Positions 7,809 through 13,842 of a DNA stretch of 64,000 nt are shown one piece after another. How positions within the stretch are numbered: position 1 is the stretch's first letter; each line of letters starts with the position of its first letter. Below the pieces are notes generated by a model that saw nothing but the letters and a program-made list of their open reading frames with translations, made no database searches and was not told where the DNA came from. The stretch is from Saccostrea cucullata. Its lineage: Eukaryota. The stretch spans positions 186,001-250,000 of the forward strand of contig NW_026933278.1 of the NCBI RefSeq assembly GCF_032062105.1, in the 5' to 3' direction. Position numbers and translations under genes: made by a program.

Positions 7809-10800
7809 GGTATACGAACCACATTAGACCACGTGACAAATCCTTTCATGTCGGTACACTCCGGGTCATGTCGATCTTTTTCGTAATTTCAACAGAATAA
7901 ACTTAAAAACGTTATCTTAGCGCGATGTATGCAAATTTTCAGTCATAATGATCGGAATGTAAACGATATAATATTTTAGTCAAATTAAAAATTATTTTAA
8001 CAAATTCAAGTCCGATCTCGCGCAAGCGTGATCTCCAGAGACAGCAATGGCCCCTGTGATAGAATGCCGCGAGACACGCGGGGCCGTTATACTTCCAACA
8101 AAAGGAAAAGAGGTAGGCCACCACTCAAGAAAAGTGACGGAGATTCAGTACAGGACACTATCATCGACCACAATTATACCATTGGTCATATTCACGAAGA
8201 TAACCAGGATAGTTGTGACCTTTGCTGTCCTGGGTTTTCGTCACTTAGTTCTTCGACGAAGATCAAAACTCAGGACTGGCAAGCAGGACGGCGTATTGTG
8301 GAATGGACTTCACTACTGAATGGCCTCCAGTCCTGCGTCCATTGTCGTTTGGGCACGCTTTTATTCACGTTACAACATGTAAAAGGAGAGATGAAGATGG
8401 GACTAGGGGGTTATTTATACATTCAGTGTAGTCAATGTGGTTCCCTGAACAGAGTTGCATATGGCAGTACATACCTCGACCACAACAGAAGGGGTCAACG
8501 TAACTTTACAGTAAATACTAAACTTGGTGCAGGTAATTATATATTTTTGTAATTATACTTTTTCAAATTATGGAAATAAGTGAAATACATATATAGTGGA
8601 ATATTGAATATCTATTCAATGTTTTGAGAAACTACTCATAAAATGAATAATTTTTGTAGCTATGATTGACACCCTTAGAGGACCCCAGAGAGTGAATAAC
8701 TTCCTCACAACACTGGATCTCCCATATATATCCCATAAAAAACTGAAGGTAATGGAGAGGAGAGCAGGTCACATCATTGAAAACTTTGCTGACAAAAGCA
8801 TGATGAATGCCAAGAAAACTGCTTTTGAGAAAGAAATGAGGTTTGATTATTTTTTTTAGATTTCGTAAATAGTTTGTAAACCACAATTATTATCAATTAT
8901 TACCAGTCAAAATGGTGCTTATAATTTCAATGACTTGTTTTAGTGATATTGCACGTTTAGAGGAGGACATGGCCCCTTTTGTATGTGATGAATCATACGA
9001 CAAAGAACTGGGTTTGGCAGTCCTGGAGGGAGAATTTCAAGGGTATGTGGTCAAGTGCTAGAAATAGATGAAGATAACTTTAGAGACATTAAATTATTCA
9101 ATATTCACTGTAATAAACTTCCTTTTGAACAGCGATCCTTCAATACTGAGACATGTTTGCCAGGATGTGGAGTCTGTCAAAGAAAGAAGAGAAGGCAGCG
9201 AGGAAAGAGATAGCTATGTATATATTATGTTATAGTTAGAGTAGTTCTTGCACTTGAAATAATTATGATGACGATACAATAATATTAATGTTTTATTATA
9301 GTGAGCTTTCATGTTCAGAGGAGGACAAGACTCTCTTTGTTAACCATGTTACTTGTGATGAAGAGCTGGGTTCAGCAGTTCTGGAGGGCCAATTTCATGG
9401 GTATGTGTTTTTAAAATGAAAGAACTTTGAGATATTGTAGCTGATCAAAATTTTTGTGGAACAAAACATTTTGCAGGATTATTTATGTTCAATGACCTTT
9501 CATTACTCAGACTAACTACCACCAGGGTGTGTCAGGATGGGGAAGTTGCTTCTAAGTTAAGGGACGGTAGCGAGGACAGAGAGCGTAATAGGTACGTAAA
9601 CAAGTTTTTTTTCCGTTTTTCATTTTCTTTTGACAGAATATTTTAATGATGTTGTTAAATATTTTATGTTTTTAATTTTTTTTAGGAATTCTCAGTCACA
9701 ATCAGGTGAAGCAGAATCTGTTTGCCAGTTATCTTCATTTGAAACACCAACTACATGTAGAAGTACAAGGTATCAATATTTTGTTTCTATAAACCAAAAA
9801 GCAAGTAAAGGTGTAACAAAATAGAAGTTTTAAAAAAAATTGTTTTCCTGTGTTTTCTATCACACTGAATTGTTATCTATTGAACTTTATCACACATATT
9901 GTCAACTCATTGTAATATAATTTTTTTTCTTTCATTTTACAAAGTGTCTGCTATTCTATTACAGGAGTACTAATCTCAAACAAAGAAGATACAAAAGGAA
10001 ATTCAAGCCAGGCAACATTTCAACTTTTACATCCAAGAGGAATTTAAAGTACATGCCAAAATCCAGATCTGGTATGACTGTTTGTGCTGACCACGGTTGG
10101 CAGAGGAAAGGCTTTGATAGTCTTACAGGTATGAAGAATTTTTTTTATTGTCTGTGCTTTTTTATTTTTTAGCAATTTAGGATAGATACATGTATAATTA
10201 ATTGAAACATATCTACATACAGGGCACACATTTCTAATCAGTAAAAGTAAGTATGGTAATAAAGTTTTGAAAACTATTGTTAAACACCGTACTTGTGCAA
10301 CCTGTAAGTGGTGGAAACGCAATAGACCTGGTCAAGTTGTTCGCCCACACAGATGTGTATGGAACCACAGTGGATCATCAAAGCTTATGGAGGCAACCGC
10401 CGGAATACAAGCAATAAAAGAGATGATATCAGAGGATACTCCTGTAGAAGTGGTGGAGGGAGATGGAAATAATACAGTAATATCCAGAATACACAACGAA
10501 CTTGGTGTACAGCTGAAGAAAAAACTTGACCGTAATCATTGTGTGAAGAACATTGTAAAACATCTGTATGAACTTAGAAATTCTAAAGATGCCAAGATCA
10601 GTAATCAAGTTATACAACATTTATCTAAGTGTATTAAATACATTTTTGAGAAAAACCAAGGAAATATTTAGGGTATGAAGGAAAATTTGGAAGCTCTTGT
10701 ACCACAACAGTTTGGTGACCATAGTGTTTACCGAGATTCTGTGGATTTATGAGGACACCAAACCAGACTTATTCACACAGAAGCTTACCATACAAGGCAA

Positions 10801-13800
10801 CACTTAAGGACCCAAATCTTAGGGAAAAGCTTGAAAAAAATTTTGAGCCGGTAATTGCAAATGCTGAACTGTATTCAGACGTAGGATCCAGTCAAGCTTG
10901 TGAACATGCTAACAGGGCTGTAAGTCTTAGAGCGCCAAAACATCTGCATTATGGGGATAGCGAGTCTCTAGATTTTAGAGTTAAAGCTACTGCAGTTCGT
11001 GTGAATGAAGGTCGCAAGTACTTGTCGGAGGTAGATGAACTGTTATTGTTCATTGGTTATGTTCTTCTGTTGTTGAACTTGTTATCCACTTCTTCATTCT
11101 GTTACTTTTGTTGTTATTTACATTTATGATTTAGTTTTCTATGTGTTTCAGGTTCTTCTTGTTTGAAGTTTATTGCTAAAAATAATCAAGTTCTGTTGCT
11201 GCAACTACCCATTTTTACTGTCACTTCACCAGGCTACATGAAGAAATGCTAATAGAATTTGAACAGAAAGACATAATTTATGCCGATTTCAATTATTTTT
11301 TGGTAATAAGATCATTTATATATATGTATATAAAAAAACATGTATTCAATGTGACTTTATTTTGATGACAAAAATAGCTAGCCCAAAAATGATTTTAATT
11401 TTTTTTTAGGCATTTAAGGATCATGGACTCTCTCCAGGATACTTCACGGAGAAGTATGCCAGTAAGAAAGATATGGAAAGACAGAAGAGGCAAGAAAGAG
11501 CAGCATTACCACAGAGGAAACGTCGTAGACTGGAACTAAAACTGGAGAGATTGACACAGAAAGGAGCAAACGAAGCAGCTGAGGGTGACACATATCAGTC
11601 AGGTACTTTTTATTTCAAACTCATTCAAAATTGAATTTTTATTTTAGAGGTGGGTATGACTCCAAATGTTGACAGAGAAAGTATCCCAGAAGCTGTGCCA
11701 AAGCAAGGATTTACCAAGGTGGATAATTTAGTTCACCTCCAAGTGAGCTATGTTGTAATAGACCTTGAAACTACTGGGCTTAGTAAGTATATATTTTTAT
11801 TTTAAAGTTTTGAATAGGTTGTTTTCAGAAAGAATAGATAAAGTATACAATTAGATACATTTATTTGTTCCAATTGATTTTGTTAATTTTTTCAGTCCAT
11901 AGAGGAATTATCCCACACATTACCCAGATTGCTGCCCAGGACATGGCTAGTGGGGAGAAGTTTTCCTGCTATGTAAAGCCCCTCATCCCGATTACTGCCG
12001 AAGCGGAAAAAGTCACAGGGATTTCTTGGACTGGGACGGAAATGACTGTGAAGGGTTTACATGTAGATGTTATTACAATTAAAGAAGCCCTTACCAAATT
12101 TTTTGAATTTTTGAAAAAATTTGACAGTGTTATTTTGATAGCTCACAATGGCAGAGTATTTGACTTTAGAGTTTTGTCATATGCTATTAATCAAGTAGGA
12201 TTTAGCGATATGTTTTTGAAATGTGTATTAGCTTTTGTCGATTCACTTTCAATGTTGCGCTCTAAAGTACCAAAGCTTAGTTCATATAAACAAGAGTACT
12301 TGGCAGAATACTTCTGCAAAGAATCGTATAACTCACATAACGCCACTGATGATGTAAATATGTTGGTAAAAATTTTGTACCAGAGTGGCATGACAAAGGC
12401 AGAGTTTGTCAAACATTCCTATTCAGCAAATTGTAATTTTTTGCAAGAGGTTTTTAATGCCACAAAATCAAGAAATATTGATTCATTGCATTGTCTGATA
12501 GCAGGTGGAGTACTGAAAACAGCAACTGCTGAAAACATTGCTGGTTCAGGTTTGAATGTACATCATTTGAAACTTATATGGCAAAGGGATGGAGAGGATG
12601 GTTTGTTGAATGTATTGTCGGCTAAGAACTGTATAGATAAACCAAGGGTTACCAAAGATAAGCGATTACTTGGGGATATAATCCCTAAGCTCTGTTGTTA
12701 TTTTCAGAAATAGTGTTTTTATACTTTATTTCATTTTTGATGTGTAAACCATATGCAGTTATCTCATATCTCTGTTGATCTGATGCGCAGGAGAATGCTC
12801 TTTATATGAACAATGTCTAAAATAAGGAAAGTTATTGACAAACAAGTTGATGAAACAAGAATGTAAGCATTTTCATAATTTTATAAGCATGTTCAATAAT
12901 GATGTGCAACAGAATGATAATTTACAATCCATAACTGTCATGGGCTTTGCCTTGTGTGCACTTGATTATGACAGTATGTACAATGCTATGATGTGTTTCT
13001 AAATTGAATATATGGATCATATTATTACATGTTTATTCTTATGATTATTGTATAAGCATGTTAAATAGCAAAGTGCATTAGAATGATTATTTTATAAGCA
13101 TGTTCAACAGAAGTGCAATAGAATGATTTACAATCCATAACTGTCATGGGCTTTGCCTCGTGTGCACTTGATTCTTACAATCCTATGATGTGTTTGTAAA
13201 TTATATATTTGGATCATATTTTTGAATATACGTTTTGGGGTACAATGACTCTTTTTGGAAAAAAGTAAAGTTGTTATGACAAATCTGTTCTGAATTTTTG
13301 CATGAGTAGAAATAAGCAGCAGGTAATAATATTTGTCTTTACACGTCTGGCAGTTTATCCTTCAAAAAGACAGTTTTTTATGGTAAAACTTACTAAAACT
13401 TAAATTATATTCCAGAATGTACTTGTAGCAATGCATTTGATTTATTGAGACTTTCAACATCACATTATTTTTGGAGAACGCGGGCATTCAAATGAATCAA
13501 ACCTTTTTGCACTAAAATTGACTTGTGATTTTTTTTTTAACTTGAAGATATGTTTTTTTTCATGAACATTGTATTATTTTGTTCTGTATTACTAATATAT
13601 TATGTCAATAAATATATTTATTTAAAAAATCATTTTTTTAATATCACTTTTCATGAATTTCAAGGCATTTTATAATGGATTTCTGAAAATTAAAGGGAGG
13701 CAATGAAGAACATGCCTTTTTTTAAAATTTCCTTTGGTAGACTTTTTTATAAATGTGTAAATACATTCAAATGGAAGTGTTTAACATATCTATGCTATAA

Positions 13801-13842
13801 AAAGTGTCGCTGATTTTTTTTTTGCAATGTGGGTCGGATACT
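7809..13842 (+). mobile_element. Kolobok-type DNA transposon (6.0 kb) in a receptor intron
   Basis: TTAA on both sides (7805-7808, 13843-13846). TIRs ggtatacgaaccacatt and (rc) agtatccgacccacatt match at 14/17, with RR..YY termini. Internal transposase gene. Confidence 0.85.
8064..12713 (+). pseudogene. Kolobok-type DDE transposase fused to a C-terminal DEDDh 3'-5' exonuclease; ~12 exons, disrupted
   Basis: Exons approx. 8064-8532, 8660-8840, 8944-9042, 9133-9217, 9302-9400, ~9493/9511-9591, 9686-9769, 9965-10128, 10223-11030, 11410-11602, 11648-11782, 11896-12713. Motifs: CxxC..CxxC; CADHGWQRKGFDSLTGH; CATC..C..NHSGSSKLME; EGDGNNT; DRNH; SSQACEHAN; EGDTYQS; then exonuclease DLETTG / AHNGRVFD / HNATDDV. 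In-frame TAG at 10669-10671 and a frameshift near 10730. Confidence 0.85.

Follow-up and report, generated by a model that had tools for sequence, protein, structure and literature searches.

The 64,000-nucleotide stretch of Saccostrea cucullata DNA analysed here (the window; contig NW_026933278.1, positions 186,001 to 250,000) contains at its positions 7809-13842 a DNA transposon of 6034 bases, the gene of which joins a Kolobok-type DDE transposase in frame to a DEDDh exonuclease, and which is almost certainly a copy of the KolobokD lineage. To the reading as a whole, namely that this is a dead KolobokD copy, the gene of which joined a DDE transposase to DEDDh exonuclease and PML_C domains, and in which the exonuclease would have trimmed 3' ends in the course of transposition, we give a probability of roughly 0.8. 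KolobokD was named by Kojima and Bao (Mob DNA 2022; PMC9587614) for Kolobok families that carry a DEDDh exonuclease resembling Exu, TREX and ERI1, and which the available text of that paper places in molluscs, arthropods and cnidarians; as hallmarks of Kolobok it gives a 4-bp TTAA duplication, 5'-RR...YY-3' ends and a DDD/E transposase with C/DxxH. The element agrees with KolobokD in its TTAA duplication, RR...YY ends, DxxH motif, CCHC finger, Exu/TREX-like DEDDh exonuclease and mollusc host, and a first-pass annotation of the window was thus right to suspect that the family might already be catalogued, all the features that could be compared being present. Given that the lineage is already described there, along with the proposal that its exonuclease degrades transposition intermediates from the 3' end, the element belongs to a known kind and has little significance as a transposon copy. 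The part of the finding that could matter is the kinship of its exonuclease to PML and Plex9.

The element starts with GG and ends with CT, and its terminal 18 bases (7809-7826 on the forward strand and 13825-13842 on the reverse strand, the family copies mostly ending in CC) pair as inverted repeats at 14 of 18 positions, flanked by TTAA target-site duplications at 7805-7808 and 13843-13846. All five distinct left ends of same-family copies lie directly 3' of TTAA, and TTAA comes next at six of the eight distinct right ends, a count that includes two identical ends possibly derived from one locus assembled twice. Given this recurrence of TTAA at the family ends, the boundaries cannot be ascribed to chance, and the TTAA target known for Kolobok elements is indeed seen at both ends of this element and of its family copies. 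piggyBac shares the TTAA, but was ruled out as its termini are unlike the RR...YY of the element. A DNA search of the element's own genome (G000) scored 40 candidates and gave 63 matches; apart from the element itself, the best same-family pieces are 73-93% identical, and several of them begin or end precisely at the element termini. These copies are deleted or interrupted, and none of those found covers the exon encoding the DDE core (exon 9, see below). Their dispersal at distinct TTAA sites indicates past mobility of the family. TTAA-bounded inverted-repeat pairs were also found in 7 of 14 scanned divergent loci of this genome, in which exonuclease matches number 143, that of the window included. 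Transposase-side exons lie upstream in 16, and the DDE core in 11, of the 20 best other exonuclease loci, two of which (L039 and L040) may be a single locus assembled twice. At L040:8900-8980, and in L039 too, two copies of a sister KolobokD family are arranged head to tail, one TTAA joining the right end to the left end. Among named proteins, the closest relatives come from oysters, mussels and other molluscs.

The element gene is best described by 12 forward-strand exons on GT-AG sites, with the exception of the intron 4 donor, which fits the earlier estimate of about 12 exons. Exon 1 (8064-8532; Pfam, splice model) supplies the start codon, a basic stretch, an N-terminal Cys motif and the start of the PF20700 domain, which continues in exon 2 (8660-8840; Pfam, splice model, homologous loci) and was detected by Pfam on three of eight element frames. 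An acidic linker follows in exons 3-7 (8944-9042, 9133-9213, 9302-9400, 9511-9591 and 9686-9769), every one of which has a length divisible by 3; exons 3-4 and 5-6 look like an internal tandem duplication (8921-9591; 129 bases, 72%), and the length of the linker varies greatly among families. Joints near these introns were seen in X2, one of six sequencing runs (X1-X6, of 24 listed) that were compared with the window. X4-X6 are raw reads, and X1-X3, in which 0.08-0.15 of the sampled words are present and which are several percent off the window, represent relatives rather than the window copy; X2 and X3 are RNA by a guess from their records. The donor of intron 4 is broken (CT at 9214-9215) and the next GT shifts the frame, but a related X2 contig skips 88 bases here, which fits an end of exon 4 at 9213. 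With this end the frame runs for 568 codons to a stop at 10669. The catalytic core is divided between exon 8 (9965-10128; splice model, homologous loci), with the first catalytic Asp at 10089-10091, and exon 9 (10223-11030; Pfam, residues), with a CCHC finger at 10294-10356 (C10294, C10303, H10348, C10354), the second Asp at 10462, DxxH at 10528-10539 and the Glu at 10902. These residues were assigned by eye against the Data S5 alignment of PMC9587614, of which the rows Kolobok_9_CGi, 7_CGi, 1_CGi and 1_ADi resemble the core, again by eye; no row there is labelled KolobokD, and the name is absent from the supplements of that paper as searched. A further zinc finger between DxxH and the catalytic Glu is whole in the homologues P0001 and P0002, whereas in the window it contains a frameshift and has Gln in place of one His. 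A related X2 contig carries an additional TTAA at the TTAA site 10281 of exon 9, perhaps a footprint left by some other element that targets TTAA.

The gene does not stop after the transposase. Its tail is encoded by exon 10 (11410-11602; splice model, homologous loci), which has an in-frame ATG at 11473 and a basic RKRRR stretch that is likely to be a nuclear localisation signal. It is followed by a 45-nucleotide GT-AG intron (11603-11647, phase 1, spliced in X2), by exon 11 (11648-11782; splice model, residues), which encodes a linker and the ExoI motif (D11761, E11767), and, right after this motif, by a 113-nucleotide GT-AG intron (11783-11895, phase 1, spliced in X1 and X2). Exon 12 (11896-12713; Pfam, fold, residues) holds ExoII (D12162), ExoIII (H12336, D12351), a connector helix, the PML_C or SAM-like domain and the stop. 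The 45-nucleotide intron had been described as leading directly into the exonuclease motif; its sites and its splicing stand, but what it leads into is a linker of about 33 residues. With both 3' introns in phase 1, the tail, ExoI and the remainder share one frame to the stop at 12711-12713, and 3' of the frameshift mentioned above exons 9, 10, 11 and 12 run in a single frame to 12713.

Several observations on relatives support the reality of this fusion. One 693-nucleotide X2 contig joins 11427-11597, 11650-11744 and 11896-12227, corresponding to exons 10, 11 and 12, X1 shows the joint 11782>11896, and Logan proteins such as P0012 and P0014 cross both junctions as predicted. Splice signals are kept at matching places in sister families, and, when 12 distinct ExoI contexts of the S. 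cucullata genome were compared, 10 had a GT one base after the motif, the remaining two being one mutated context and one intron-free family. PF20700 occurs together with PML_C in 8 of 10 long homologues. Furthermore, the locus L068 in the same genome has the DDE core, the exonuclease and PML_C in a single open frame of 690 residues, for which no splice model is needed. This locus (L068:5040-7112; G000:C20521) belongs to an intron-free KolobokD family, of which 10 exonuclease matches show an open frame of that length; such frames suggest recent activity. The in-frame fusion proposed in the first-pass annotation is therefore upheld by the element ends, Pfam, the catalytic residues, the splicing of relatives and the L068 frame.

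Certain observations nevertheless weigh against a full-length fusion product. No exon 9>10 joint was present in the six runs compared, though joints lacking exon 9 were, and for this reason the case for a splice from DDE core to tail in this family is built on the conservation of splice sites and on homologues. Logan contigs supply none of the 10 long fused homologues of the subgroup, and in X4-X6 the raw-read depth over the element is near zero, with no joints. Given the missing exon 9>10 joint, the exon-9-less joints and the origin of the long homologues, the full-length fusion may be the rarer product. The missing exon 9>10 joint could also be taken to mean that transposase and exonuclease are two adjoining genes with no fusion, but this is scarcely credible, as no stop closes the transposase frame ahead of the exonuclease, the tail is spliced to the exonuclease in X2 and the Logan proteins at sites that sister families conserve, and the L068 frame spans both parts.

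On the last frame of the element, Pfam recognised RNase_T (e-value 2.8e-13) and PML_C (e-value 1.2e-18). All the DEDDh residues are present in the arrangement D-E, D, H-x4-D, and from these, and from the activity known for relatives, a metal-dependent 3'-5' nuclease activity is predicted. The predicted structure of the family member P0012 (predicted local distance difference test score, pLDDT, 89.7) has Plex9.1 as its best fold match (Foldseek e-value 1.6e-14; Z 26.2, root-mean-square deviation 2.0, 186 aligned), with Exu and TREX1/2 next (Z 22-24). These fold matches span residues 69-270, the SAM-like part resting on Pfam and on BLAST matches to gar PML.

Related transcripts may repeatedly be without exon 9, leaving an exonuclease-only frame; both skipping of the exon and its genomic deletion would fit. 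The X2 joint 10128>11416 links exon 8, at its last base, with exon 10 at a depth of 20.3, and the joint 11302>11416, seen in X2 and X3 at a depth of about 6, connects a stretch of intron 9 to exon 10. This stretch (11152-11302, forward strand, with an uncertain 5' edge and a donor after 11302) is a cryptic or alternative exon, and its ATG at 11246 shares the frame of exon 10. Its role as a new first exon is doubtful, given that in X2 it is preceded by letters of exon 8, after an internal cut in that exon. Where exon 8 is joined to exon 10 the reading frame changes, and the exonuclease ends up in the other one. The shifted exon 8 frame, apparently joined to exon 10, starts the Logan proteins P0107 (cluster 85% identity), P0014, P0112, P0117 and P0124 (68%), and P0098, which starts inside exon 10, is found on 65 contigs; the public gene model P0127 corresponds without any difference to 11246-11302 followed by exons 10-12. 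A literature search on exon skipping in DNA transposons gave nothing on Kolobok among 10 of 203 matches.

Both joints, the five proteins opening with the shifted frame and the abundance of P0098 are what might be expected if the exonuclease were mostly a separate protein, made from transcripts lacking the DDE exon, that clears stray DNA or suppresses retroelements in the manner of TREX1 and Plex9, from which either the element or its host would gain. The restriction of L1 by Plex9 and PML, reported in the available text of PMC10123124, is also in keeping with this. We consider it unlikely, however, that this was the main use of the domain. A genomic deletion of exon 9 would give identical joints, and no other same-family copy found in the genome covers that exon; in such transcripts the exonuclease frame sits 3' of a premature stop and would require re-initiation; the short proteins were pre-selected, as they came from a search with a length window of 149-475 residues; the start codon of P0107 is missing from the window; and the intron-free L068 family cannot form an exonuclease-only product through an exon 8>10 splice.

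The window copy is dead and unable to make the full protein. There is a stop in exon 9 at 10669-10671, a frameshift in the same exon near 10722-10731, and a third lesion in the form of the CT that replaces the GT donor at 9214-9215; the exon 9 lesions are absent from a related contig in X3. As the first-pass annotation had observed, the DDE part is broken while the exonuclease exons are open. All three lesions fall in the transposase part. The idea that this contrast means something finds no support, the chance that three lesions all fall in the 5' 2066 of 3212 coding bases being P=0.27. The ratio of nonsynonymous to synonymous substitution (dN/dS), pooled over comparisons with nine stretches of same-family copies, amounts to 0.30 in exons 1-2, 0.42 in exon 10 and 0.36 in exons 11-12; the comparisons all share the window as one side and are hence non-independent, and exon 9 lies outside them. 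The contrast that had been looked for between the exonuclease and the DDE side is thus not seen, the values of 0.36 and 0.30 being similar. Comparable purifying selection on both halves is as expected if both served the element, and by these ratios the transposase and exonuclease halves were both maintained during the active period of the family. The idea that the window copy selectively retained its exonuclease was accordingly rejected, on both the lesion placement and the ratios.

A related possibility is that the window copy is undergoing domestication, in which the transposase would decay and the host keep a 400-residue exonuclease gene. Exons 10-12 are open and lack none of the catalytic residues, the gene model P0127 coincides with the alternative exon and these exons, and other samples contain open exon 12 frames that are almost identical (P0011, at 97%, and P0126). 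Yet the placement of the lesions fits chance, dN/dS does not favour the exonuclease, a related contig lacks one base in exon 12 and one in exon 10, and raw-read depth is near zero in X4-X6, all of which makes domestication very improbable.

As for the function of the fused protein, the transposase of an intact element would bind the inverted repeats, excise the element and insert it at TTAA by cut-and-paste, overhangs at the ends of element or donor would be resected by the exonuclease, a tethered 3'-5' enzyme that would depend on metal, and the SAM-like part might help to hold nucleic acid. We give about even odds to the exonuclease trimming 3' DNA ends made during transposition. The clearance of DNA that would set off innate sensing, the other role put forward in the first-pass annotation, is a conjecture. 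According to the available text of PMC10123124, gar PML-CDE digests single-stranded and double-stranded DNA with Mg or Mn. Certain points stand against trimming: our literature searches found no experimental work on a KolobokD protein; transposition of other Kolobok lineages proceeds without an accessory nuclease or with one of another type, as stated in the available part of PMC9587614, and trimming is therefore not essential to the superfamily; and the SAM-like part is tied to RNA binding in PXL and Exu in the available text of PMC13659232, which does not point to DNA ends. That no functional test exists, and that several Kolobok lineages encode the transposase alone (PMC9587614, same portion), might even suggest that the exonuclease is a captured passenger without a role for the element. 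But the fusion is kept in oyster, mussel, scallop, abalone, ant and coral proteins, the catalytic motifs are kept in most aligned rows and dN/dS is well below 1, leaving a mere passenger a slim prospect.

The PML-like character of the exonuclease, which had been suggested alongside a TREX-type one, is borne out by both sequence and fold, the best matches among solved structures being of the Plex9/PML type (PDB 9MRC, 9MRD, 9L85, 9L8B) and those to Exu and TREX weaker. Exon 12 of the window matched Plex9-type chains with e-values of 1e-19 to 1e-22, with no TREX or Exu among the six matches, and the family profile matched Plex9/PML-type structures at 1e-39 to 1e-44, Exu at 2e-10 and TREX at 3e-8 or weaker; a PXL structure was absent among the matches listed in the fold and profile searches. 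A reciprocal search was seeded with the fish Plex9 P0255, the first domain of which matches PDB 9L8B end to end. Among long proteins (best 120 of 292), it recovered another fish Plex9-like protein, gar PML (e-value 1.7e-39) and then Kolobok fusions (e-value 3.9e-36 onward), several of which outrank paddlefish PML. P0127 and gar PML share 30% identity over 253 residues, PML_C part included. Two models of gar PML diverge right after the ExoI motif, one being without the next 24 residues, and the flanking residues allow phase 1; on the strength of these proteins, rather than of PML DNA, gar PML appears to share the phase-1 intron after ExoI with the element (intron 11).

Trees were built from 57 of 66 extracted domains (nine were dropped by hand as redundant or partial); only four rows came from vertebrates, the outgroups were bacterial, and neither TREX nor Exu was represented. 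A quick tree nested PML/Plex9 inside KolobokD with a Shimodaira-Hasegawa-like approximate likelihood ratio test (SH-aLRT) value of 93. However, a tree holding all 41 Kolobok-borne rows together had a higher likelihood (approximately unbiased (AU) test, p=0.93), and KolobokD monophyly is hence not rejected. In a careful tree this monophyly received 12/0 and occurred in 11% of 200 bootstrap trees, the base being without resolution, while PML and Plex9 grouped together (98/90), and this clade sits with the Kolobok-borne domains, apart from the bacterial outgroups (98/95). The trees thus show neither that PML/Plex9 nest within KolobokD nor that they do not, the quick-tree value being countered by the AU result and the weak base. 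The S. cucullata genome was also searched for the SAM domain of a host Exu; this gave no match, and no control was matched either.

We tentatively suggest, at somewhat less than even odds, that vertebrate PML (in its exon 9) and fish Plex9 owe their exonuclease-plus-SAM module to a capture from a KolobokD transposon. Early in the jawed vertebrates, a TRIM gene would have spliced onto the last exons of an element, keeping the intron after ExoI, and a KolobokD that made the nuclease alone by dropping its DDE exon would have eased such a capture. Capture from the transposon is favoured, though not proven, given that KolobokD is widespread and PML is present in jawed vertebrates only. The available text of PMC10123124 places the origin of the PML gene in jawed vertebrates and does not name the source of its exonuclease, and that of the PXL paper (PMC13659232) calls for an evolutionary study of EXO-SAM proteins; the word 'Kolobok' occurs 0 times in the main texts of both. 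No paper linking PML/Plex9 with KolobokD was found by title or abstract, in a search outside of which most subscription journals lie. If capture is true, a domain with which a transposon trimmed DNA was turned into an enzyme against retroelements and into the tail end of a tumour suppressor. Exonuclease homologues without PF20700 were also encountered, namely a 1229-residue mussel protein (P0277) and a 561-residue Logan protein (P0359), as well as a 344-residue homologue from a hemichordate (P0306); these three are either element fragments or host genes and bear on the origin of PML.

Elsewhere in the window, the element lies in sense orientation within an intron of an EGF-repeat receptor-like gene (3287-5788, 7418-7449 and 14575-14845), consisting of a long Cys-rich EGF-like exon, a transmembrane exon and a tail with Tyr-x-x-Leu motifs. 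This gene, which has no Pfam match, is probably MEGF10-like. Its Cys-rich exon has a frameshift near 4290. The intron holding the element is apparently in phase 1, and a host splice into element exon 2, 11 or 12 is therefore predicted to be in frame. A second DNA transposon at 44175-49734 looks young; its terminal inverted repeats of 77 bp match perfectly, and it has two open frames in convergent orientation, one encoding a YqaJ-like nuclease with a PHD finger (45285-46799, forward strand) and the other a DDE_Tnp_4 transposase (47807-49168, reverse strand); its layout is reminiscent of ISL2EU elements. Behind the stop of the KolobokD gene, a piece of about 100 bases (about 12766-12870) matches many unrelated loci, has a very high read depth and is a fragment of another, abundant repeat. 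Tandem arrays with units of about 156 bp and 165 bp occupy 6247-6939 and about 16500-17420, and an open frame at 52224-52754 has a weak SWIM zinc-finger match (e-value 0.003), below the cut-off.

Set against known systems, the element differs from the published account of KolobokD (PMC9587614) in that the in-frame fusion, the exon structure, exon-9-less transcripts and PML_C are absent from the available text of the latter, PML occurring 0 times in the main text. KolobokE and KolobokP, as described there, likewise have a Kolobok transposase with a downstream accessory nuclease, but theirs is of the PD-D/ExK or His-Me finger type, as against the DEDDh type of the element. Neither a YqaJ-type nuclease, as in KolobokE, nor a KolobokP-type domain was matched by Pfam on the eight element frames, and KolobokP's long terminal direct repeats are not among the repeats listed for the element. 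Fish Plex9 and PML, unlike the element, are host genes with no transposase; PML has RING, B-box and coiled-coil domains, none of which Pfam found on the frames of the element, and the Plex9 proteins examined are without the SAM-like part. Drosophila Exuperantia, TREX1 and TREX2 have the DEDD fold of the element's exonuclease at 16-25% identity; TREX has no SAM-like part, whereas Exu shares the EXO plus SAM-like layout but is a pseudonuclease. Human PXL is catalytically dead according to the available text of PMC13659232, in contrast to the intact DEDDh residues of the element. KolobokD proteins are EXO-SAM proteins with intact catalytic motifs, ranging from corals to ants, which makes them a candidate donor of the PML module and a natural set of enzymes for testing the function of the SAM-like part.

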